Below, in pieces: positions 13,386 through 27,038 of a DNA stretch of 64,000 nt (position 1 is the stretch's first letter; each line of letters starts with the position of its first letter). Source of the DNA: Pseudomonadota bacterium (lineage in GTDB: Bacteria > Pseudomonadota > Gammaproteobacteria > Steroidobacterales > Woeseiaceae); contig JADFNS010000009.1 of assembly GCA_022563255.1 (NCBI GenBank), positions 7,295 to 71,294 of the forward strand, read 5' to 3'. Below the pieces are notes generated by a model. It did not search any database, had not been told where the DNA came from, and worked only from the letters and a program-made list of their open reading frames with translations. A program made the position numbers and the translations under genes.

Positions 13386-14282
13386 ATGGCGAAAGATCTC
13401 GAGGTTGCAATTGTGTTTGCCGACGTTGTCGGCAGCACGCAGCTGTACGACAAGTACGGCGACACCAAAGCCAGCGAGACCGTTGCAGCTTGCCTCGATA
13501 TCATGAAAGACGCGACCTACCAGTTCAACGGCACGGTCATCAAAACGATTGGCGACGAGGTCATGTCGACATTCGAAACCGCGGACGAGGCGATGGGCGC
13601 GTGCGTGATGATGCAAAATCGCATTACCGCCACCAGCAAGATAGCGGACGGCATTCCCGTGTCGATTCGTATCGGTTGCCACTTCGGGCCCGTGGTGCAA
13701 GAGCAGAACGACATATTCGGCGCGGCCGTGCACACGGCCAATCGCATGACATCGCAGGCGAAAGCCCGGCAGATCGTCATATCCGGGTTTACCGTTGAGC
13801 AGATGAGTCCGGAGCTGCGCAATCAGACGCGCCAGATCGACCTGGCCACGGTGCGCGGTCGTGTCGATGAGGTCGCGCTGTTCGAGTTGGTTTGGCAGCC
13901 GGACGAGGCGACGAGCATGCTGCCGACGATCGGTTGGGAGAACAAAGGACGCCGGGCGTCGAAGCTGCTATTGAATTTCCGCGACACGACGCTCGAGATA
14001 TCGGATCAACGCAAGAGCATTAATTTAGGTCGCGCGGACGACAATGACCTCGTCGTTAAAGGAAATCTGATATCCAGAATTCACGCCCGGATCGAAATGC
14101 GGCGCGGCAAGTTTGTGCTGGTTGACCAGAGCACCAACGGCACGTTTCTGCACGACCTGCAGGGCAACGAGACCTTCGTTCGCCGTGACACGACCGAACT
14201 CGGGGCCGAAGGGACGATCGGTTTGGGGCGCGCCGAAGAGGCCGACTCTTCGCTGGCGATCTATTACAAGACGATCGATTAA
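13386..14282 (+). CDS. class III nucleotidyl cyclase domain fused to a C-terminal FHA domain
   Basis: Cyclase motifs VFADVVGST, IKTIGDEVM and NDIFGAAVHTANRM. FHA-like LGRADDNDLVV...ISRIHARI...LVDQSTNGTFL. Confidence 0.8.
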   Translation: MAKDLEVAIVFADVVGSTQLYDKYGDTKASETVAACLDIMKDATYQFNGTVIKTIGDEVMSTFETADEAMGACVMMQNRITATSKIADGIPVSIRIGCHFGPVVQEQNDIFGAAVHTANRMTSQAKARQIVISGFTVEQMSPELRNQTRQIDLATVRGRVDEVALFELVWQPDEATSMLPTIGWENKGRRASKLLLNFRDTTLEISDQRKSINLGRADDNDLVVKGNLISRIHARIEMRRGKFVLVDQSTNGTFLHDLQGNETFVRRDTTELGAEGTIGLGRAEEADSSLAIYYKTID

Positions 14283-16315: not shown

Positions 16316-17338
16316 GTGGATTGGCAGATTCAAAACAAACGGGAAACTCAAAGGCGGCTGTTGCTGCAGTTCGTCACGACCGTGACGCTGCTGCTGAGCG
16401 GCCTCTCTGCAATGGCGACGGGTACGCCAGCAGGCACGGTTATCCAGAACTCCGCGACCATTGATTTCGATCTGGGCGGTACGCCGATCACTTTGACGTC
16501 CAATACGACGTCGATAACGGTCGCTGAACGTATTGACGTGACGGTCACGCTGCAAAGTGCGCAGGTTCAAGTTAGCGCCGGCGATACGATTCGAGCCATA
16601 CTGTTCCGCGTTACCAATATCGGCAACGGCACGGAGACGTTCCAGCTCGCAATCGACAGCGTGCTGGCCGGAGACGATTTCGATCCGCTTCCCTCGGCGC
16701 CTGATGCCATCTTTTTCGATACTGACGGCAGCGGTGACTTCAATATCGCCAACGACCTGCCGTATTCGCCGGGCGCAAACGATCCGAACCTGGCTGCAGA
16801 CGCTTCCGTTGATATTTTCCTGGTTAACGATATTCCAGGAACGGTCGTCAACGGCAATATTGGCCGCACTGAGCTCACGGCGACCTCTGCAACGGGCACC
16901 GGCGCGCCGGGTACCGTGTTCCCTGGACTCGGAGACGGCGGCGTTGACGCCGTCGTGGGCACCACCGGTGGTCAGGCTGCCGACGTTGGCGAGTACATCG
17001 TCGTTGACGTGCAGGCGAACTTCGTCAAGTCGCAGCTGGTCAACGATCAGTTTGGCGGCACTGAGCCAATTCCCGGCGCCACGATTACCTACACGGTCAC
17101 GATCGAGATTACTTCGGCTGGCACGGCGACCGCCAGTGTGTTCAGAGATGTGGTCCCGGCAAATTCCACCTACGTTGCCGGCAGCATATTGCTGAACGCC
17201 GCGTCGCTTTCCGACGCTATCGACGCGGACGCCGGCGAATTCGATACGTCCGGGGCGCCGACGATCGTCGTACGGCTGGGAGACCTGACGTCGGCGGACG
17301 GCGTTCAAACCGTCGAGTTCCAGGTGACGATTAACTAA
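16316..17338 (+). CDS. secreted DUF11-repeat protein A (subunit-like, two domains)
   Basis: GTG start. Signal ...LLLSGLSAMA|TGT. DUF11/TIGR01451 signature PGATITYTVTIEITSAGTATASVFRDVVPANSTYV. Ends VEFQVTIN. Confidence 0.75.
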   Translation: MDWQIQNKRETQRRLLLQFVTTVTLLLSGLSAMATGTPAGTVIQNSATIDFDLGGTPITLTSNTTSITVAERIDVTVTLQSAQVQVSAGDTIRAILFRVTNIGNGTETFQLAIDSVLAGDDFDPLPSAPDAIFFDTDGSGDFNIANDLPYSPGANDPNLAADASVDIFLVNDIPGTVVNGNIGRTELTATSATGTGAPGTVFPGLGDGGVDAVVGTTGGQAADVGEYIVVDVQANFVKSQLVNDQFGGTEPIPGATITYTVTIEITSAGTATASVFRDVVPANSTYVAGSILLNAASLSDAIDADAGEFDTSGAPTIVVRLGDLTSADGVQTVEFQVTIN

Positions 17339-17362
17339 TTGATGTGAGCTAAGGAGCGAATG

Positions 17363-17839
17363 ATGAAAATTTTGACAGGACTGATGCTGACGATGTTTGC
17401 CTGCATCGCAGTGGCACAGGATCCGGTCCATCTGGATGTGCGCACGATCGTGCAGAAGGAAGAGATCGTCGTCAACGCCGCTGGGGACACGGAGACGAAG
17501 CTGGTCACAGCCGAGACCGTAGCTCCGGGCGAAAGCGTGTTCTACACGATTACTTTCACCAATGTGAGTGACGAGGTCGCCGACAACGTCGTGATCACCA
17601 ACCCGATCGCGTCTGAATTGACCTACATCGATGGTTCGGCTTTCGGGCCGGGCATGGACATCCTGTTTTCCGTGGATGGCGGACAAACATTCGCCGCAGC
17701 GGGCGAACTTAAGGTGACCGAGGACGGTCAGGAACGCGTCGCGACGGCGAGTGACTTCACACATGTTCGCTGGATCATGCAGAACGACTTGCAAGCCGGC
17801 GCGCAGGGTATCGCGCGCTTTGCCGCCGTCCTCAACTGA
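17363..17839 (+). CDS. secreted single-domain DUF11 protein B
   Basis: AAGGAG 6 nt upstream (alternative ATG at 17360). Signal MKILTGLMLTMFACIAVA|QDP. PGESVFYTITFTNVSDEVADNVVITNP. Ends ARFAAVLN. Confidence 0.75.
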   Translation: MKILTGLMLTMFACIAVAQDPVHLDVRTIVQKEEIVVNAAGDTETKLVTAETVAPGESVFYTITFTNVSDEVADNVVITNPIASELTYIDGSAFGPGMDILFSVDGGQTFAAAGELKVTEDGQERVATASDFTHVRWIMQNDLQAGAQGIARFAAVLN

Positions 17840-17853
17840 ATAATTTTTGAACC

Positions 17854-17877
17854 GAGCGGTCTTTATTTGGGCCGCTC
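17854..17877 (+). terminator. weak hairpin after gene B (gagcggtc-N8-ggccgctc), no clean T-tract
   Basis: 8-bp stem including one G-U pair, followed by aaatttgatgtt. Confidence 0.3.
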
Positions 17878-17909
17878 AAATTTGATGTTAAGCAAAAAGG
17901 AGTACCGTG

Positions 17910-19046
17910 ATGAAAACTGTAGGACACAAAATCGGAAATCTGCTTCGGTTTGGTGCTGTCGCAGTGGCGCTGTTGCTTGGGCAACAGGCGTTCGCTGTGG
18001 GTACCGACGCCGGAACCTCGATTTCCAACTCAGCGTCAGTCGTTTATGACGTGAATGGCGCCACTCAGACGGCCGTAGCTTCGACTGTTGCGACGTTTAC
18101 AGTGGATCGTATCGTCAGCTTTACGCTGGTACAGCAGGGCGCCGCGGACACGATTACGAGTCCGGGAGCGTTCAATGCTGCGACTGCGTTCGAATTGACG
18201 AACACGGGCAATTCGCCGCTGGACTTCAGTCTGTCTGCCATCAACCTGGCTGCCGGAATTGTCGTCAATTCCACGGCCGATGACGCGGACATGGATGCGA
18301 CCTTCGAGTTTGCGGTTGCCAACGGCGATGGTGCCGGTGGTACGCCGATTCCCGGAACGGATCTGACGTTCGTTGACGGCCTCGCCGAAGACGCGACGGT
18401 TGTTATTTGGGTTTTGGCTGACGCGCCGTTGACATTGATCAACGGTCAGATTGCCAACATCGAATTGACAGCAACTGCCGCCGATCCTGGCGCGGGTGTG
18501 AATCCGGCTCCGGACTCCTCCCTGGGTGTCGACCTGACCGCATCCGTCGCGGATGGCGATCAGGCCATCGACGTTGTCTTCAACGACGCTGGCAGAGACG
18601 GCTTCGAGGCGGCTCGAGACGGCTACGCCATTGTTTCGGCAAGCCTGACGATCACCAAGACGGCCCTCATTATCGATGATCCCGTTAACGCGGTGGCACC
18701 GTTCTTTGCGATTCCGGGAGCGACGATCGAATACACGATCAACATCGCCAACACCGGTACCGTGGATGCGACCGATATCGTGATCAGCGATACGCTGGAT
18801 GCGAATCTGATCTTCCAGGTCGGCGCCTACAGCGATGCCGGTACTCCGGTTGACGTTTCCATCGGCGGCACTACTTTCTGTATCGCTGATGCAGCGGATG
18901 CCGACGGTGATGGCTGCGCGCTCGACGGCGCAATCCTGACGATCGGCGGTGCGGACTGGACCGTTACTTCGCCTGCCGCGCCGATCAATGTCGCTGCGGG
19001 TACGAATATCGATATCACCTTCCAGGTCGTCATAAACGCCACTTAA
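17910..19046 (+). CDS. secreted DUF11-repeat protein C (subunit-like, paralogue of A)
   Basis: AAGGAG 7 nt upstream of the ATG (GTG at 17907 also possible). Signal ...LLGQQAFA|VGT. PGATIEYTINIANTGTVDATDIVISDTLD. Ends ITFQVVINAT. Confidence 0.75.
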   Translation: MKTVGHKIGNLLRFGAVAVALLLGQQAFAVGTDAGTSISNSASVVYDVNGATQTAVASTVATFTVDRIVSFTLVQQGAADTITSPGAFNAATAFELTNTGNSPLDFSLSAINLAAGIVVNSTADDADMDATFEFAVANGDGAGGTPIPGTDLTFVDGLAEDATVVIWVLADAPLTLINGQIANIELTATAADPGAGVNPAPDSSLGVDLTASVADGDQAIDVVFNDAGRDGFEAARDGYAIVSASLTITKTALIIDDPVNAVAPFFAIPGATIEYTINIANTGTVDATDIVISDTLDANLIFQVGAYSDAGTPVDVSIGGTTFCIADAADADGDGCALDGAILTIGGADWTVTSPAAPINVAAGTNIDITFQVVINAT

Positions 19047-19195
19047 AACTGGCAGTTGACGATAAATCACGGTGCTTAAGGAATTGCACGAAGCGTTACG
19101 CCTGCCGGCGGCCCTGATGGGTCGCCAGCGGGCAGCCGCGCACTCGACCGGGCCACCCGGGCGATGCGGCGGCGGTCGCCTCGTGCAAACAGATT

Positions 19196-19223
19196 CTCGG
19201 GGGGAGCAACGGCTTCCCCCGAG
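19196..19223 (+). other. GC-rich RNA hairpin in the 218-nt gap between genes C and D
   Basis: ctcgggggga / ttcccccgag forms a 10-bp stem (8 Watson-Crick, one G-U, one A-U) with the 8-nt loop gcaacggc. No T-run follows. Confidence 0.4.
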
Positions 19224-19263
19224 GCACGTCTGGAGTTCCTGCACCACCGCATTTGGTACTTTT

Positions 19264-22200
19264 ATGGCGGCTGTTCTGCTGTCATTTCTTGGCGCGGGGA
19301 CGGTCTTTGCCAGCCCCCCCGGAGCTGTTATTTCCAACCAGGCGGCACTCGACTACTTCAACGCGGCGGGCCAGCCAGCGACCTTACTGAGTAACACAGT
19401 TACGGTCGTAACAGGGGTCGCGCGCAGTCCATCCAGCGTCGAATTTACTCGCGTGTTGACGGTTGGTACGGGCGCTTATCAGGAAGTTGTTGGTCCGTCA
19501 TCGTGTTTCCAGGCAGGCGTATTCCAGTTGCTTGCCGATCCGCTTCTGACAGGCGGCGTGGTGATCGATCCGACGCAAACGCAGGACGTCAGCGCAACGT
19601 CGTCGTACAACCTGGGCGAACCGTTGTTTATTCGCCTCGTTGACAGCGATCAGAACGTTGACTATCAGGTGATCGATACGGCCGTTGTGACGGTCGTAAA
19701 CGACGCCTCGGGCGACACGGAAACCATCCAGCTCAGTGAAACGGGCGTCGATACCGGCGTGTTCGTTGGCTACATTCCCACGGCAAGAGGTGCCGCCAAT
19801 TCCGGTGATTGCGTCTTGCAGGGGCCACTGGATTCGTCGGTCACTGTTCGCTACACCGACCCTGTGGATGGCACGGACACGGCACAAGCGACGGCCAGCC
19901 TGGATCCGGTGAGCATTGTTTTCGAGTCGCTGACCGGCACAGTGGTTGATGATGTACTCGTCGAACTGGTCGATGCTGTAACCGGGTTGCCGGCGGTCGT
20001 ATTCGGCAACGACGGCACCAGCACCTTCCCATCGCAGATAACGAGTGGTTCCACGGTCGTTGACAGTTCCGGAACAAATTATGTATTTGGCGTCGGCGAA
20101 TATCGCTTCCCGGTTGTTGCCGACGGTGATTACCGGCTGGTGGTTACGCCGCCACCCGGATACGTCGCACCATCGACCGCCACCATCGCTGATCTGCAAT
20201 TACTTGCCGGCGCACCGTATGCTTTGGGACCGGAGTCCTTCGGTGCGGCGTTTACGAAAACGGGTCCGGCCTCCATCGACGTCGATCTGCCAATCGATCC
20301 GATCTTGTCGGCGCTGTTCCTGCAGAAGCAAACCTTGACGACGACGGCCTCACCGGGCGATTTTGTCCGTTACGAATTGCTGCTCGAGAACAATGCGGCA
20401 GTTGGCGCTGTAATCGACATCACTGTTATCGATCAGCTGCCTGCCGGCGTGCGTTTTGTACCAGGGTCAGTCACCGTAAACGGCGTGACGGCGCCGGATC
20501 CGGTAATGAATACCGGGCCCCTCACTCTCGAATTTACTATCGCTGCGCTCGCCGTTGGTGAGCGAGCAAGAATTTTCTACGTCGTCGAAGTTATCGGTGG
20601 CGATCGCAATGGCGAGTTGGTAAACCGCGCAACCGCATTCGCTGCAGGTGGTTTGTCGTCGAATGAGTCGACCGCGACCATTCGACTGACCGAGGATTTG
20701 TTCCGCTCCACGGGCACCATTATTGGCCGCGTACTGGAAGCGGACTGCAGGCAGGCGACGTTCAGCGAGGAGCAGGGCGTCTCCGACATACGTATCTACC
20801 TTGAGGATGGCCGCTACGCGGTGACAGACGAGGGCGGTCGATTCCACCTCGAGGGCATCGATCCCGGAACCCATGTTGCACAGCTCGATACTTTCACGTT
20901 GCCCGGATACTTCGACATCATTGGTTGCGATGCCACTCCAGGTTACGCAGGCAGTGCGGAATCCCAGTTCGTGCGAGTCGCACGCGGCGGGCTGCACCGA
21001 GCCGATTTTTACCTGCGACGCAAAGCGCCGCCGGAAGGCCGCATCGATCTTGAGCTCCAGAATCTCGGTACCGATAGCGCCGAGGAAGTCATCTACAAAT
21101 TGAAACTCAACGGCGTTGGCAACGTCGCGATTCGCAACATCAACGTAATGATCGTTTTGCCGCCAGGCGTCACCTACGTTCCGGACAGCATGACCGTCGA
21201 TGGCAAGGATCTCGGCAATCCCAGGATCATGGGTCCGGCCGTGACATTGGCGCTCGACCCGCAGACAGGCGACTGGACCAGCGAAATCGAATTTGTTGCC
21301 ACGATCGACGAAAACGTTGCCGGCGAGCTCGTGTCCAAAGCCACCGTGCTTTTCGATTCACCGGTTGCCAGGGGTCAAAAAACGCCGGTTGCGGAAACCC
21401 GCATGGTGCGCGAACCGAGCGTCGTTGAAAGCGAAGATTACGTGCTCTATCTCAATTTCGACGTGCTCTCGGACAAGCTTGCTCCCGAGGACAAACTGGA
21501 ACTCAACATGCTGATCGGTGATTGGCAGGGCATTAGCAACATTCAGATATTCGCGACGGGCCACACGGACGTCGACAGGATTTCGCCGCGCAATATGCAC
21601 TTGTTCGCCGACAACTATGTGTTGTCGCAGGCGCGGGCTATGACAGCGGCATTTTACCTGGCCGACGGACTGAATATTCCCAATGCGAACATCCTGGTCG
21701 TGGGCCGCGGGTCGGACGTTCCGGTTGCCAGCAACGCCACAGCAGCCGGGCGCGGCAGCAATCGCCGCGTCGAGATGGTGATACGCGGTATCCGGCCAAG
21801 CAAGCCATCGTTCCTCGAAGTAACCCAGGAATCCAGTGGTACCCGGGAAGCGGCGACGGTTGGCGCTCTCCCGGGGTCCGAGATCGAGCAAGCGCGGGAA
21901 GACCGGGCCGCTGCTGAAATCGTCTTCGTCGGTACGCCGAAATCTCAGGTCGAAGAGCCACTGGAATCGTTGCAGCCGGGCATCTCAATGTTGCTGCCGA
22001 AAAAGTCTTTCCAGCCCGCTATTTTAGCATCGAAGGTTGCGATTCAGCATGCGCCGGATCAGACGGTAGCCCTGTACGTCAACGGCAGCCTGGCCGATGC
22101 GTTGAATTTCGAGGCGACGGTTGTGAACCGTCGTCAGACGGTTGCCGTCAGTCGCTGGCGCACGGTCACATTGCAAGCAGGCAAGAACGTGCTGCGCGCC

Positions 22201-25056
22201 GTGATCACGAACCCGGACGGAACGCCGGCGAAGACGCTTACGCGCACGATTTATTTCACGGGCGTGCCCATAAGAGGCGTACTGGATCTGGAAGCGTCCC
22301 ACTTGGTCGCCGACGGCCAAACCCGACCGGTCGTCGCCGTGCGGCTGTTTGACAGGACGGGCAACGTATCTCGTCCGGGCATGGTTGGCGGCTACCGCGT
22401 GAACCCGCCGTACCGGTCCTGGTGGGACGTTGAGAAAGAGCGCGAGAATGAACTGGTTGCGATCGGCGAGCGCGAGTCCACCTATCGTATTGGTGCGGAC
22501 GGCATCGCCCTGATCGAACTCGAACCCACCACACGCACCGGCGAACTGACGCTGAACCTGAAATTCGAAAACGGACGCGAGCAGAAAATCCGTGCGTGGC
22601 TGAAGCCGGCTGCACGCGACTGGATCCTGGTTGGCTTTGGCGAGGGCACCGCGGGCAATACAACGATCTCGGACAATGCTGTTGCCGCGGCGGCCGCCGG
22701 TGAATTCGACGGTTATTACGACGAGGGTCGTGTCGCATTTTTCGCCAAAGGCCAGATCAAAGGCGAGTATTTGCTGACGCTGGCCTTCGATTCCGACAAG
22801 CGGCGCTCTGACAATCGGGATCGCTTCAACACCGTGATCGATCCCAACGCGTACTACGCGTTGTACGCGGACAAGAGCGAGCAGCGTTTCGAGGCCGCCA
22901 GTCAACGCAAGATATACGTCAAGCTTGAGCGCAGTCAGTTTTATGCGCTGTTCGGCGACATGAATACCGGATTGTCGGTTACCGAGCTGTCTCGCTACGA
23001 ACGGCGTTTCAACGGTTTCAAGAGTGAATTCCGCGGCAACAACGTCGGGTACAGTGTCTTTGCCGCCGAATCGGATCAAACGTTTGTTCGCGACGAATTA
23101 CGTGGCGATGGAACGTCCGGCCTCTACCAGTTAAGCCGGACGCCGATTATTGCGAACAGCGATATCGTGCGCATCGAGGTTCGCGATCGCTTCGACAGCA
23201 GTATCGTAATTAGCAATACAACCTTGAGCAGGTTCCTGGATTACACGCTCGACCCGCTGACGGGCACGCTCTTTTTCAAGCGGCCCATCGCGAGTCGCGA
23301 TACCGACTTCAATCCGGTGTACATCATTGTCGAATACGAGACGGCCAATACGAGCGCCGCAGATCTGATCGCCGGCGGTCGCGGGTCGTTGCGCGTGGCG
23401 GACGGTCGGGTCGAAATTGGCATTACCCATGTAACGGACAAAGCGCAGGGTGCGGCGGCAGATCTGACCGGCGCCGACCTGCGCTGGCAGATCAGCGACC
23501 AGACGGTGCTGCGTGCCGAAATTGCGGCCACGAACAATGAAGTTGGCGGCGTTACGCAGTCCGGCACGGCGCAATTTATCGATCTGCAACACAACGGCGA
23601 GAACGTCGACGTGCACGCCTACATTCGCGAGGTCGAAGAATCGTTCGGCATGGGCTACCAGTCGGCGGCGGACAAGGGCTTTCGCCGTCTGGGCATCGAT
23701 GCGAGAGGCAAAGTCAGCGAGCATTACTTTGTAGAAGGCGAAGCGACCTGGCAACAGAATTTGCAGACACAGGACATCCGCAATACGGTTCGCGCTCGCG
23801 TGCGTTATGAGAAAGAGGGTTTCACGGCAACGCTGGGTCTCCTGCACGCTGCCGACAAGTTTGACGATGGCGATACGCGGAGCAGCGACCTGGTCGAAGC
23901 CGGCGTGTCCAAAAAGATGCTCAACAGCAAGCTGACGCTGCGCGCATCCGCCAGTACCGCGATAGGCAATGCGGCGCAAAGCGTGGATTATCCGGGCAGC
24001 GTCGTCGTTGGCGCAGACTACCGTATCGCGCAGGGCATCGACCTGATCGCAGAATATGAAAAGGCCAGTGGCCGGGATATCGATACCACGATGACTCGTG
24101 TTGGTGTCCGCGCAAGGCCGTGGAACCGGGCGCAAATCAATACATCTCTCACGAACGAAGAATCGGAATTCGGACCGCGCCTGTTTGCCAACCTGGGACT
24201 TGTGCAGGGTTTCCAGATTGGCGAAAACTGGGTGGTTGACGTGGGCGTGGACCAGACAAAATCGATCATCGACAACAATGCACGCGTTTTCGATCCGGAC
24301 CGCGAACTCATCTCGGGCTCGCTGAATCAGGATTTCCTCGCGGTTTACACCGGCGCCATGTATTCCGCCGCGGACTGGAGCGCGAACGCGCGCATCGAAA
24401 TGCGCAATTCGGATGCGGAAGATCGCAGGATCCTGTTGTTCGGCTGGTACCGTGCGCCCACCCAGGGACATGGATTGTCGGCGGGCCTGACAATGTTCAC
24501 CAGTCAGCTCGACACTGGCAACGAGCTCGCATCGGCCAGGTTGAAAGTCGGCTGGGCATATCGCATAGCCGACAGCAAGTGGGCGTTCCTCGACCGGGCA
24601 GATCTGCTCTTCGACAAGGCGGTACTGGGCGTCGACACGGAAAAATCCTGGCGTTTCATCAATAACTTCAATGCCAACCGCCGTATCAATGCGCGCGCCC
24701 AGTTGTCGCTGCAGTACGCGTTCAAGTATGTCCGCAGCAACTACGACGGGGCGGATTATACGGGATACACCGATCTGATCGGCGTTGACTTCCGCCACGG
24801 CCTGCGCGAGCGCTGGGAGGTCGGCATGAACACCAGTGTGTATCACTCCTACAGCGCCGGGATTCTCGACTACGGCGTGGGCGTAGACGTCGGCTACAAC
24901 GTCGGTTCGAACATGTGGTTGACGCTGGGATACAACTTCACGGGCTTCGACGACAAGGATTTTTCCGAGGCTCGTTACACCGCGTCGGGTCCCTACCTGA
25001 GATTCTCGATCAAAGCCGACCACCTGCTGCTCAAGCGCATCGCCGGACAGCGATAA
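19264..25056 (+). CDS. giant (1,930 aa) protein with DUF11, CnaB-like and OmpA-like domains and a beta-barrel-like C-terminus
   Basis: ATG at 19264 gives the signal MAAVLLSFLGAGTVFA|SPP. Two intact DUF11 domains lie at ~20314-20690 and ~21040-21365. CarboxypepD_reg/SdrD-B-like segments include GEYRFPVVADGDYRLVVTPPPGY. The OmpA_C-like module is at ~21439-21790 (ATGHTD...NYVLSQARA...NRRVEMV). The C-terminal ~550 aa show an alternating beta-strand pattern. Confidence 0.8.
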   Translation: MAAVLLSFLGAGTVFASPPGAVISNQAALDYFNAAGQPATLLSNTVTVVTGVARSPSSVEFTRVLTVGTGAYQEVVGPSSCFQAGVFQLLADPLLTGGVVIDPTQTQDVSATSSYNLGEPLFIRLVDSDQNVDYQVIDTAVVTVVNDASGDTETIQLSETGVDTGVFVGYIPTARGAANSGDCVLQGPLDSSVTVRYTDPVDGTDTAQATASLDPVSIVFESLTGTVVDDVLVELVDAVTGLPAVVFGNDGTSTFPSQITSGSTVVDSSGTNYVFGVGEYRFPVVADGDYRLVVTPPPGYVAPSTATIADLQLLAGAPYALGPESFGAAFTKTGPASIDVDLPIDPILSALFLQKQTLTTTASPGDFVRYELLLENNAAVGAVIDITVIDQLPAGVRFVPGSVTVNGVTAPDPVMNTGPLTLEFTIAALAVGERARIFYVVEVIGGDRNGELVNRATAFAAGGLSSNESTATIRLTEDLFRSTGTIIGRVLEADCRQATFSEEQGVSDIRIYLEDGRYAVTDEGGRFHLEGIDPGTHVAQLDTFTLPGYFDIIGCDATPGYAGSAESQFVRVARGGLHRADFYLRRKAPPEGRIDLELQNLGTDSAEEVIYKLKLNGVGNVAIRNINVMIVLPPGVTYVPDSMTVDGKDLGNPRIMGPAVTLALDPQTGDWTSEIEFVATIDENVAGELVSKATVLFDSPVARGQKTPVAETRMVREPSVVESEDYVLYLNFDVLSDKLAPEDKLELNMLIGDWQGISNIQIFATGHTDVDRISPRNMHLFADNYVLSQARAMTAAFYLADGLNIPNANILVVGRGSDVPVASNATAAGRGSNRRVEMVIRGIRPSKPSFLEVTQESSGTREAATVGALPGSEIEQAREDRAAAEIVFVGTPKSQVEEPLESLQPGISMLLPKKSFQPAILASKVAIQHAPDQTVALYVNGSLADALNFEATVVNRRQTVAVSRWRTVTLQAGKNVLRAVITNPDGTPAKTLTRTIYFTGVPIRGVLDLEASHLVADGQTRPVVAVRLFDRTGNVSRPGMVGGYRVNPPYRSWWDVEKERENELVAIGERESTYRIGADGIALIELEPTTRTGELTLNLKFENGREQKIRAWLKPAARDWILVGFGEGTAGNTTISDNAVAAAAAGEFDGYYDEGRVAFFAKGQIKGEYLLTLAFDSDKRRSDNRDRFNTVIDPNAYYALYADKSEQRFEAASQRKIYVKLERSQFYALFGDMNTGLSVTELSRYERRFNGFKSEFRGNNVGYSVFAAESDQTFVRDELRGDGTSGLYQLSRTPIIANSDIVRIEVRDRFDSSIVISNTTLSRFLDYTLDPLTGTLFFKRPIASRDTDFNPVYIIVEYETANTSAADLIAGGRGSLRVADGRVEIGITHVTDKAQGAAADLTGADLRWQISDQTVLRAEIAATNNEVGGVTQSGTAQFIDLQHNGENVDVHAYIREVEESFGMGYQSAADKGFRRLGIDARGKVSEHYFVEGEATWQQNLQTQDIRNTVRARVRYEKEGFTATLGLLHAADKFDDGDTRSSDLVEAGVSKKMLNSKLTLRASASTAIGNAAQSVDYPGSVVVGADYRIAQGIDLIAEYEKASGRDIDTTMTRVGVRARPWNRAQINTSLTNEESEFGPRLFANLGLVQGFQIGENWVVDVGVDQTKSIIDNNARVFDPDRELISGSLNQDFLAVYTGAMYSAADWSANARIEMRNSDAEDRRILLFGWYRAPTQGHGLSAGLTMFTSQLDTGNELASARLKVGWAYRIADSKWAFLDRADLLFDKAVLGVDTEKSWRFINNFNANRRINARAQLSLQYAFKYVRSNYDGADYTGYTDLIGVDFRHGLRERWEVGMNTSVYHSYSAGILDYGVGVDVGYNVGSNMWLTLGYNFTGFDDKDFSEARYTASGPYLRFSIKADHLLLKRIAGQR

Positions 25057-25118
25057 ACCCTGAATTTTGCCTCGATTCGGTCGCGCCAACGTGGCACGAA
25101 CCGTGTAATCTTGCGCCC

Positions 25119-27038
25119 GTGACATCTCTGACGGAATTCTTCGGCGACGCCAGCCCACTCAAAGATCTGTTGCCAGGTTTTCAGCCGCGGGCGGGTCAGG
25201 CGTGGATGGCGGAAGCCGTCGCCGAGGCGATCGCCAACTGCGACAAACTGGTCGTCGAGGCCGGCACCGGAACCGGGAAGACGTTCGCTTACCTGATTCC
25301 GGCGCTTCTGAGCGGCCGAAAAACCATTATCAGTACCGGCACGAAAGCGCTCCAGGACCAGTTGTATCATCGCGACCTGCCGCTCGTTGGCAAAGCGATA
25401 GGCCGGCCGGTCACCACGGCGTTGCTCAAGGGACGCGCCAACTATCTGTGCCTGCAACGACTCGACCAGGTGACGGACCCCGCACCGGCATTGCTGCGAG
25501 ATCTCAACGAGGTCCGCGAATGGCGCCACCGTACGATTAGCGGCGATAAGGCCGAGTTGATCGAGGTTCCCGAGGATTCTCAGGTCTGGCCGCTGGTCAC
25601 CTCGACCGTGGACAACTGTCTCGGTCAGAAATGTCCCGAGTATTCGCAATGCCATGTCGTGAAGGCGCGGCGCGAGGCGCAGGATGCGGACCTTGTGGTC
25701 GTCAATCATCACCTGTTGCTCGCCGATCTGGCGATGAAGGAGGAAGGTTTCGTCGAGTTCTTGCCCGACGCCCAGGCCATCATTCTCGACGAGGCGCACC
25801 AGGTACCCGACCTTGCCGCGCAATTTTTCGGCGTGTCGCTCGGCAGCCGCGAGATGGAGCGTCTGCTCGACGAGGTGCGTGCCGCGACGTTGCCATTTTC
25901 GCAACCGGACCTGAATCGTCGCATTGACAAATTGCAGACCGGAATTCGAAATTTGCGAGCCGCTGCGCCGCGCACGGAAGGGCGGCACGAGCTCAGCGAA
26001 GTCATGGACGAACTGCGCGAACCTCTGGCGCAGCTGTCCCATGCCATGCACGACGTCCAGGTGGCGTTGATGGACCTCGGGGACGCGTCGCTTGCCATCG
26101 AAAAGCTTCATGAGCAGCTTGTCTCGATGGCGGAGCGGTTGGTGTTGCTGACCGGCGAGGACACCTGGGACGGATTGCGCTGGCTGGAGATTCATCCGCG
26201 AAGTTTGCGCTTGCACCTCACACCGCTCGATGTATCCGCAAAGCTCAACGGCCTCATCGACAATGGCGTGCAGGCCTGGATCTTTACGTCGGCCACGCTC
26301 GCCATCGGCGACGACTTCTCGCATTTTGCGGCGCGCATGGGACTTACGGGCGTTGCCGGGCTGACGTTTCCCAGCCCTTTCCCGATCGAGCAAAATGGCC
26401 TGATATTTTTGCCGCCGGACATGCCACAGCCCGCCGATCCGAGCCACACGGGGGCGATGCTCGAAGCAGTGACGCCGCTGCTCGAAATGGTCGCAGGCGG
26501 CATGTTCTGCCTCTTCACGAGTCATCGCGCTCTGAACAACGCAAAAAAATGGTTCAAGTCTCGCAAGTCGGCGCTCGGCGGCCGCATTTTGCTGGTGCAA
26601 GGCGATGCGCCGCGGGACGACTTGTTGCGCCGCTTCCGGCAGATTGGCAATGCGGTATTGCTGGGGACGGGCAGTTTTTGGGAAGGCGTTGACGTGCGTG
26701 GCCCGGCGCTCAGCGTCGTTGCGATAGACAAGCTGCCGTTTGCGTCGCCCGCGGACCCGCTGATGATGGCGCGGCTGGAATTTATTCGCCGCGAGGGCGG
26801 CAACGGATTCATGGAACACCAGTTGCCGCTCGCCGCGTTGTCGCTGAAGCAGGGCGCGGGCAGATTGCTGCGCGATCAGACGGACTACGGCGTCGTCGTA
26901 TTGTGCGATCCGAGAATCACTGAAAAAAATTACGGCAAAATGTTCCTGCAATGCCTCGAGCCTATGCCGTCGACGTCGGCGCTGCACGAAGTTTCCAGTT
27001 TTCTCAGAGCACATGAGCGCAAAGGGGCCGTCGCATGA
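25119..27038 (+). CDS. yoaA: DinG/YoaA-family ATP-dependent DNA helicase (Fe-S, XPD-like)
   Basis: Walker A AGTGTGKTFAYL, a DEAH box (ILDEAHQV) and a Cys cluster NCLGQKCPEYSQC. The GTG start at 25119 is inferred from LPGFQPRAGQ conservation. Confidence 0.75.
   Translation: MTSLTEFFGDASPLKDLLPGFQPRAGQAWMAEAVAEAIANCDKLVVEAGTGTGKTFAYLIPALLSGRKTIISTGTKALQDQLYHRDLPLVGKAIGRPVTTALLKGRANYLCLQRLDQVTDPAPALLRDLNEVREWRHRTISGDKAELIEVPEDSQVWPLVTSTVDNCLGQKCPEYSQCHVVKARREAQDADLVVVNHHLLLADLAMKEEGFVEFLPDAQAIILDEAHQVPDLAAQFFGVSLGSREMERLLDEVRAATLPFSQPDLNRRIDKLQTGIRNLRAAAPRTEGRHELSEVMDELREPLAQLSHAMHDVQVALMDLGDASLAIEKLHEQLVSMAERLVLLTGEDTWDGLRWLEIHPRSLRLHLTPLDVSAKLNGLIDNGVQAWIFTSATLAIGDDFSHFAARMGLTGVAGLTFPSPFPIEQNGLIFLPPDMPQPADPSHTGAMLEAVTPLLEMVAGGMFCLFTSHRALNNAKKWFKSRKSALGGRILLVQGDAPRDDLLRRFRQIGNAVLLGTGSFWEGVDVRGPALSVVAIDKLPFASPADPLMMARLEFIRREGGNGFMEHQLPLAALSLKQGAGRLLRDQTDYGVVVLCDPRITEKNYGKMFLQCLEPMPSTSALHEVSSFLRAHERKGAVA

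Follow-up and report, generated by a model that had tools for sequence, protein, structure and literature searches.

The domain family DUF11 (PF01345) has been renamed CLIPPER; a crystal structure (PDB 9IFR) revealed a CnaA-like sandwich of nine β-strands, in which an autocatalytic isopeptide bond forms within the chain between a lysine (Lys) of strand 1 and an asparagine (Asn) of a late strand, catalysed by an aspartate (Asp) (PMC12617251). In the adhesins described to date, of which B9T28_05395 from Acinetobacter silvestris provided that structure, the domains are complete, arranged in tandem and crosslinked within one polypeptide. The CLIPPER fold family is known so far only with within-chain bonds, in single-polypeptide fibrillar adhesins of this kind. 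Here we describe a four-gene operon from a Woeseiaceae bacterium (Pseudomonadota; GenBank assembly GCA_022563255.1, contig JADFNS010000009.1, positions 7,295 to 71,294; this 64,000-nucleotide stretch is referred to as the window and all coordinates are its own) in which domains of the same fold family, with the same Lys/Asp/Asn motifs, are cut between strands 7 and 8 and the two halves reside on different gene products.

Fibres built by strand donation between subunits have been described in several settings. In the BsaA/TasA fibres of Clostridium perfringens, an N-terminal segment enters the β-sheet of the next subunit and an autocatalytic Asn-Lys isopeptide bond, formed by an acid-catalysed triad without a sortase, locks it in place; this 'donor strand exchange and lock' has mutational support (bioRxiv 10.1101/2024.11.04.621531). 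The archaeal threads of Sulfolobus acidocaldarius (Saci_0406), whose subunit carries a Sec signal peptide, combine donor-strand complementation by an N-terminal tail with proposed isopeptide links (PMC9715654). The principle of a donor strand with an isopeptide lock is therefore already known; in BsaA and the Sulfolobus thread it uses unrelated folds in single-membrane organisms. In chaperone-usher pili (type 1 and P), the N-terminal extension of one subunit completes the immunoglobulin (Ig) fold of the previous one, between an acceptor-only tip and a basal terminator. Sortase-assembled pili (SpaA, BcpA, RrgB and EbpC) are covalent polymers of subunits with CnaA/CnaB isopeptide domains. SpyTag/SpyCatcher is a split isopeptide (CnaB2) domain whose parts reconstitute and bond spontaneously.

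The four genes, termed A, B, C and D, lie on the forward strand in that order among the open reading frames (ORFs) of the window. Gene A (16316-17338) encodes 340 amino acids (aa) comprising a signal peptide, an N-terminal hairpin, a middle β-sandwich domain and a truncated C-terminal CLIPPER/DUF11 domain. Gene B (17360-17839; 159 aa) encodes a signal peptide and one truncated CLIPPER domain, without the hairpin. Gene C (17907-19046; 379 aa) has the layout of A, with both hairpin and truncated domain, and is its paralogue at 34% identity. Gene D (19072-25056) is far larger (1994 aa as called) and combines a long N-terminal leader, a hairpin, an Ig-like stalk that contains two complete CLIPPER domains, then an OmpA-like domain and, at the C-terminus, approximately 1085 aa with weak matches to outer-membrane β-barrels. 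We refer to the hairpin as the donor and to the truncated domain as the acceptor.

The last strand of proteins A, B and C is strand 7 of the nine-strand CLIPPER domain. An earlier note on this DNA had claimed that all three stop at one common point of a DUF11 domain, and every peptide that it quoted was found in the sequence. Mapping of domain boundaries with hidden Markov models (HMMs), as that note had proposed, placed the ends of the PF01345 matches in A, B and C at profile positions 53 to 56 of 114, whereas an internal DUF11 domain of D reaches position 98. AlphaFold2 predicted seven strands in the C-terminal domain of A against nine in domain 1 of D, where the final two strands are ELVNRATAF and SNESTATIRL. 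Two further strands were predicted in the N-terminal segment of A. Because seven and two strands make up the nine, what is missing is a hairpin of two strands, approximately 35 residues long, and not the single strand that the earlier note had supposed. The C-terminal domains are thus incomplete, as that note held.

The segments proposed to supply the missing part do lie directly after the predicted signal-peptidase sites of A, C and D. Those sites (SAMA/TG in A, AFA/VG in C and VFA/SP in D, the slash marking the cut) were read by eye against the -3/-1 small-residue rule of von Heijne and fit it. The segments read TGTPAGTVIQNSATIDFDLGGTPITLTSNTTSITV in A (16418-16522, forward strand), VGTDAGTSISNSASVVYDVNGATQTAVASTVATFTV in C (17997-18104, forward strand; N-segment HMM E=3e-9) and SPPGAVISNQAALDYFNAAGQPATLLSNTVTVVTGV in D (19312-19419, forward strand); the coordinates first given for A were exact, whilst those for C and D each shrank by one base. 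An HMM of the N-terminal segment, run against a six-frame translation of the whole window, matched at these three sites only. The hairpin of A contains five residues (G, T, I, N and A) that are invariant in 51 homologues.

To place these segments relative to the truncated domains, the latter were rescanned with the DUF7619 profile before and after a segment was appended. The C-terminal domain of A gave no match alone and 18.6 bits with the segment, reaching profile position 130 of 133. The score of B rose from 18.3 to 34.9 or 36.3 bits and that of C from 27.3 to 38.4 bits, and the appended segments extended the matches to positions 130 to 132. A shuffled segment added nothing. Similarly, a profile of 30 such chimeras (C-terminal domain plus N-terminal segment) was aligned by hhalign to the family profile of D domain 1. 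The alignment ran continuously across the junction with a score of 77.0, compared with 71.8 when the hairpin was left out, 71.5 when it was shuffled and 70.8 when it was reversed, and extended from template position 96 without the hairpin to 114 with it. The chimera profile also crossed the junction in the Bacillus cereus pilin BcpA, but at E=0.09. The clearest result came from a tandem DUF11 adhesin of 5697 aa (P0278), in which HMMs of the split parts tile 23 consecutive repeats, C-terminal part and then N-terminal part, with a gap of 2 to 5 residues. The N-terminal segment is the missing hairpin of strands 8 and 9, and the match is real and not due to chance.

The position of the cut has a consequence that the earlier note overlooked, namely that it parts the isopeptide triad. 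Lys and the catalytic Asp are situated in the C-terminal part, and Asn in the N-terminal hairpin. In A, the acceptor domain (16991-17335, forward strand; CLIPPER strands 1 to 7, ending ...VEFQVTIN at the stop codon) contains Lys238 (NFVKSQ; 17027-17029) and Asp278 (FRDVVP; 17147-17149), and the candidate isopeptide Asn is Asn45 of the hairpin (IQNSA; 16448-16450). In C, the acceptor (18642-19043, forward strand; ending ...ITFQVVINAT) contains Lys251 (SLTITKTAL) and Asp295 (VISDTLD), with Asn41 in the hairpin. Both sets match, at the level of sequence, the residue layout of BsaA. Domain 1 of D (20314-20688, forward strand) is a complete nine-strand CLIPPER domain in which all of the triad lies on one chain (LQKQTL, VIDQLP and LVNRAT). 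Domain 2 (21040-21408, forward strand) is complete and CLIPPER-like, and has Glu, Val and Ser in place of all three residues; the triad in D is therefore all or none. In summary, the nine strands lie on a single polypeptide in D domains 1 and 2, and are divided in the terminal domains of A, B and C.

Profile scores agree with membership of the CLIPPER/DUF11 family. B (28.7 bits), C (25.9 bits) and D (33.8 bits) exceed the PF01345 cut-off of 24.6. A scores 16.3 bits with that profile and is recovered by TIGR01451 (29.8 bits; cut-off 24), which also matches B at 38.4 bits and reports two stretches in D. Domain 1 of D scores 38.2 bits with DUF11 over profile positions 4 to 98, and C scores 33.6 bits with DUF7619. 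When the D model was searched with Foldseek, 9IFR was retrieved at a template modelling (TM) score of 0.72 and 24% identity, a match that we assigned to domain 1, Foldseek giving no query ranges. Searches of PDB sequences with D domain 1 and with C returned nothing useful.

The layout is retained well beyond the window. In the A family, the N-terminal motif and the split are kept in 132 full-length representatives (37-58% identity), where their loss in homologues had been named as grounds for abandoning the idea. Lys is present in 132/132, Asp in 130/132 and the hairpin Asn in 117/132, the triad being complete within single proteins in 115. All 15 members without the hairpin Asn keep both Lys and Asp. 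This pattern of conservation suggests that the split triad is under selection, and a Lys-Asn bond probably forms between hairpin and acceptor. The family itself is large, with 295 clusters (50% identity) matching A at E<1e-30.

A genome scan recovered 49 loci, and the split layout is also kept across these loci from distant taxa. The A-B-C-D order and architecture were found in Woeseiaceae, Steroidobacteraceae, Sphingomonadales, Moraxellaceae, Pseudomonadales, Oleispira, Paraglaciecola, cultured Thalassolituus and a metagenome-assembled genome (MAG) of Krumholzibacteriota, and the architecture of D is conserved in all complete loci. The allocation of halves is likewise fixed across related loci, and the earlier scheme was upheld on this point: A and C carry both parts, B the acceptor only and D the donor only. 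In D relatives of 30-70% identity, and in relatives from other orders, the hairpin directly follows the signal peptide. Of the 77 sequences scored, some of them fragments truncated at the N-terminus, 66 have the hairpin Asn of D (Asn88 in the window).

In two natural fusions the halves are joined directly. One, in a protein of a Thermaceae MAG (locus L050), reads ...YQLNFQVTVN/AGTAANTAIENTATVEF, and the other, in the metagenomic protein P0282, reads ...FELSFIGHIL/VGTPAGSILNYSV. In each, a truncated domain is joined to the next hairpin exactly at the point that corresponds to the stop codon and signal-peptidase site, with no signal peptide between the units, and a free N-terminal hairpin and a free C-terminal truncated domain are retained at the ends. 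Closure of these 939-1335-aa multidomain rods on themselves is implausible. The tail-to-next-head arrangement within the head-to-tail polymer proposed by the earlier note is thus matched by two independent fusions, and the proposal as a whole is partly supported. The Thermaceae locus is a rearranged version of the system: it encodes a 939-aa protein of two fused A-like units with insertions (L050:9998-12817), followed by a hairpin-bearing protein of 904 aa with several complete DUF11 domains (L050:12858-15572), and a separate protein, longer than 1659 aa, that weakly matches the C-terminal region of D.

Several lineages encode additional proteins of approximately 600-1030 aa that lack a donor hairpin and end in a truncated acceptor domain with Lys/Asp (or Lys/Glu). 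These are located upstream of A in L042 to L046 and L049 (for example L045:6976-10017), and at L033:18450-20255 and L029:6936-9521 (reverse strand). Their C-terminal ends include ...FKFRYKVKVQ, ...FSLKFQVMVQ and ...FEVRFRVRVN. Those of Oceanospirillales and Krumholzibacteriota have a common N-terminal region (...AAYLYWSGSG...), and the Oceanospirillales proteins that were scanned contain complete DUF11 domains. We regard the additional proteins as candidate tip adhesins. None is encoded in the 64-kb window.

The distribution of donor and acceptor halves suggests a role for each product. A and C would be shaft subunits, each both donor and acceptor. B, whose length is conserved at 155-158 aa among relatives, possesses Lys33 and has Asn81 at the position of the catalytic Asp (VITNPIA, residues 78-84; 17591-17611). 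Across 46 loci this position is Asn in 42 and Lys is present in 31; distant B relatives also lack Lys. Since B has the acceptor half only, and usually no catalytic Asp, it would be a distal, non-covalent cap. Alternatively, B may be a holder for donor hairpins and not a structural tip. D, having the donor half only, would terminate and anchor the chain, and may also serve as an export pore. B and the large adhesin-like proteins lack a hairpin and so cannot complete themselves, and D contains no domain that needs completing.

We infer that A to D probably form a head-to-tail surface fibre, self-assembled by hairpin complementation of split CLIPPER domains, locked by Lys-Asn bonds and anchored on D. 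A, B and C would be exported to the periplasm by Sec. The hairpin of an incoming subunit, consisting of strands 8 and 9 with the Asn, would enter the open domain of strands 1 to 7 in the subunit ahead and so complete a nine-strand domain. Lys, Asp and Asn would thereby be brought together, and a spontaneous Lys-Asn isopeptide bond would lock the joint. Neither a sortase nor a chaperone would be needed for assembly. The distal end would be capped by B or, in lineages that have one, by a large adhesin-like protein, with the B joint being non-covalent. The D hairpin would terminate the chain and tie the fibre to the peptidoglycan through the OmpA-like domain and to the outer membrane through the C-terminal region, which might double as the export pore. 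The precedent of 'donor-strand exchange and lock' in BsaA and the archaeal threads speaks for such a fibre. The simplest origin of the parts, given the tiling of P0278, is the fission of a tandem array at the loop between strands 7 and 8.

A number of observations weigh against this reading. Its weak point is the choice between completion from another chain and completion within the chain, as contact between chains is something that we infer. The geometry of A and C would permit completion within the chain, provided that the two domains were packed antiparallel and next to each other. In an AlphaFold2 monomer model of the D N-terminus, hairpin residues 11 to 30 have predicted local distance difference test (pLDDT) values of 91-93, so the hairpin in that model probably packs against an adjacent domain of its own chain, which weakens the argument that D is an orphan donor; monomer models of donor-strand pilins, however, often self-dock. 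Mean-field direct-coupling analysis, run on 316 sequences of the A family, recovered within-domain contacts clearly. Pairs between hairpin and C-terminal domain were weak (10-249 at rank 28 and 4-203 at rank 72) and comparable in strength to those between hairpin and middle domain. The hairpin is too conserved for this method to give it a clear partner. In Oleispira and Paraglaciecola (L042, L044, L048 and L049), the D hairpin has Ser in place of Asn (...GDVLDSPASTNY...) and both Lys and Asp remain in the A and C acceptors, so that loss of the donor Asn is not accompanied by loss of the acceptor residues; the anchor joint in this clade may be non-covalent. Furthermore, the OmpA-like domain of D sits between the stalk and the barrel-like region and obscures the membrane topology, no outer-membrane export route was identified for A, B and C, and no chaperone for the incomplete subunits is present.

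The first of these concerns gives rise to an alternative that we consider unlikely, in which the hairpin of A and C folds onto the C-terminal domain of its own chain to form a discontinuous CLIPPER domain, circularly permuted and interrupted by the middle domain. A and C would then be stable monomeric envelope or surface proteins, with pairing between chains limited at most to B and D. CnaA/CnaB adhesins commonly have discontinuous and nested domains, RrgA being an example, and the presence of the triad within single proteins in 115/132 representatives fits such folding as well as it fits a homopolymer; the feasible antiparallel geometry and the confidently docked hairpin of D may be added in its favour. 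However, the best supported model of A (mean pLDDT 85; the five models span 72 to 85) leaves the hairpin strands (E8-19 and E22-34) at pLDDT 55-65 compared with approximately 90 elsewhere. In the natural fusions the hairpin completes the domain of the preceding unit and not its own, and self-completion is denied to B, to the large acceptor-only proteins and to D. The 15 members that have lost Asn whilst keeping Lys and Asp make more sense with a partner hairpin supplied by another chain, and as an origin the splitting of a tandem array is simpler than permutation combined with insertion.

Another possibility, to which we attach little weight, is that the N-terminal motif does not complement anything: it would belong to the domain that follows it, or mark the protein for sorting or recognition during export through D, and the C-terminal domains would be seven-strand variants of DUF11 in a non-polymeric outer-membrane complex or an adhesin with accessory proteins. 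DUF11 domains with seven to nine strands, some without isopeptide bonds, have indeed been reported (PMC12617251), and both the docked appearance of the D hairpin and, in the A family, hairpin coupling to the middle domain as strong as that to the C-terminal domain could be read in this manner. Such a scheme leaves the invariant Lys and Asp of the truncated domains partnerless. It also sits poorly with the match of the hairpin to the missing strands in profiles and tandem repeats, with fusions that place the hairpin contiguous with a truncated domain, and with a triad that is either wholly present or wholly absent in the domains of D. Equally improbable in our estimation is a polymer in which the hairpin complements the neighbouring chain without any isopeptide bond, Lys, Asp and Asn being purely structural. 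The lack of the catalytic Asp from B in 42/46 loci and of Lys in 15/46, together with the absence of Asn from approximately 11% of A relatives and from some D relatives, would be accommodated by this, and BsaA oligomers are stable in sodium dodecyl sulphate (SDS) even without the bond (bioRxiv 10.1101/2024.11.04.621531). Conversely, Lys and Asp are near-invariant in A and C over 37-58% identity, and the homologous complete domain in 9IFR forms its bond spontaneously (PMC12617251). We therefore retain the covalently locked, head-to-tail fibre as the favoured explanation.

Compared with the described systems, the operon shares features with several. The Acinetobacter CLIPPER adhesin is similar to D in its size, its CLIPPER stalk and its OmpA-like anchor, homology having been compared in the CLIPPER domain alone. 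BsaA differs in its TasA-family fold, Gram-positive host, single disordered donor strand, dedicated SipW peptidase and lack of an outer-membrane anchor; no TasA-type Pfam match was found in A to D and no peptidase gene in the operon, and membership of that family was rejected. The archaeal threads link an N-terminal amine to an Asn of subunit n+2, have an unrelated fold and belong to a heavily glycosylated archaeal system. With chaperone-usher pili the proposed fibre would share its polarity, and the counterpart of their missing piece (here two strands) and an N-terminal donor are present, with insertion between chains presumed. Those pili donate one strand, whereas the system here has a two-strand hairpin, probably a covalent lock, and a single giant protein as candidate anchor. 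No match to a PapD-like chaperone or a PapC/FimD-type usher was found in A to D with Pfam or NCBIfam, and the operon has no further genes.

Sortase-assembled pili are joined by transpeptidation, whereas the link here would come from the chemistry of the domain itself, in two-membrane organisms. A, B and C end in ...VTIN, ...AVLN and ...VINAT without an LPXTG motif or hydrophobic tail, and neither the operon nor its flanks encode a sortase. Pilins of this group (SpaD, BcpA, EbpC and SpaA) do appear among the Foldseek matches, and scores with TIGR04226, the isopeptide-forming fimbrial domain, were 27.6 (in C) and 15.0 bits, both under the cut-off of 30. The type V pili of Bacteroidota, whose lipoprotein precursors are matured by an Arg-specific protease, were also rejected: the signal peptides of A to D end AMA/T, AVA/Q, AFA/V and VFA/S without a lipobox Cys, the donor is N-terminal where type V strand donation is C-terminal, and the Pfam scan gave no FimA/Mfa match. 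SpyTag/SpyCatcher is man-made and has one Asp-bearing strand split off; here the split would be natural, in a CnaA-like domain, would detach an Asn-bearing hairpin and would serve polymerisation.

The remaining parts of the proteins are less readily classified. The middle domain of A (16526-16990, forward strand; pLDDT approximately 90) is covered by no Pfam family in a Pfam scan and bears conserved NTGNG and FDTDGSGDF motifs. The latter (residues 134-142; 16715-16741), downstream of NTGNG, is a nearly invariant DxDxDG-like loop whose sequence suggests a calcium-binding site. Foldseek with the whole A model retrieved only generic elongated arrays of Ig domains (integrin legs, complement MG domains, Saf and SpaD) and was uninformative on the position of the hairpin.

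In D, residues 1 to 80 (19072-19311) include an extension of approximately 60 aa ahead of the hydrophobic core of the signal peptide, and the called start codon is uncertain. A motif within this leader, RGEQRLPPRHVW (19198-19233), recurs at the protein level in several D relatives of 55-65% identity, and the extension is reminiscent of autotransporters with their extended signal peptide regions. The OmpA-like peptidoglycan-binding domain (21457-21765, forward strand; residues 796-898) is recognised by PF00691 at 30.8-34.9 bits (cut-off 27.2) over profile positions 2 to 98 of 98, with many further NCBIfam matches of OmpA/MotB type. The C-terminal region (21802-25053, forward strand; 1084 aa) begins with weak Ig-like (Invasin_D3/Big_1) matches and continues as outer-membrane β-barrel-like sequence. 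Within its family, OMP_b-brl was matched by 5 of 17 members (best E=1.6e-8) and Invasin_D3 also by 5 of 17. A search of PDB sequences with the family profile gave no meaningful match and no usher, and no characterised homologue was found. D is split into two or three ORFs in L009 (8219-14076), L037 (12721-18318) and L034, the last of which also has broken A and C; these may be assembly errors or pseudogenes.

The operon is flanked by a gene for a GTP-type phosphoenolpyruvate carboxykinase and one for a DinG-like helicase, and this synteny is repeated in one related genome (locus L001). A scan for promoters and terminators in the operon gave nothing beyond shuffled expectation. The longest ORF of the downstream helicase (24915-27038) overlaps the 3' end of D by approximately 140 nucleotides (24915-25056). 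The L001 counterpart starts approximately 160 nucleotides past the end of D and is shorter (610 aa against 707 aa in the window), so the true start of the helicase probably lies further downstream. Upstream, a 298-aa protein (13386-14282), also syntenic with L001, corresponds there to a protein with an adenylate/guanylate cyclase domain and a forkhead-associated (FHA) domain, and has no evident tie to the fibre operon. The nearest relatives of the window belong to the Woeseiaceae, a group known from marine sediments.

The earlier note's assertion that no such mechanism had been described for this family still stands: full-text searches, which may have missed papers in subscription journals, found no account of the operon or of a split CLIPPER domain, and no description of the mechanism in this family, this fold or a Gram-negative setting. 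It is quite possible, and we put this forward tentatively, that the operon represents a widespread and unrecognised class of self-polymerising fibres in two-membrane bacteria, independent of sortase, chaperone and classical usher and based on a natural SpyTag/SpyCatcher-like split of the CLIPPER domain, with D as terminator, tether and anchor or pore. The cultured Thalassolituus strains that carry the operon make the proposal directly testable. If confirmed, it would constitute a new route of pilus or fibre assembly in Gram-negative bacteria and the first covalent link between subunits derived from an autocatalytic isopeptide domain split between them. If true, it would further mean that tandem-domain fibrillar adhesins can give rise to modular polymers when a gene is split at a loop, would offer natural, orthogonal pairs of 'hairpin tag and catcher' for protein engineering, and would give a function to many proteins now annotated only as 'uncharacterized repeat protein (TIGR01451 family)'.

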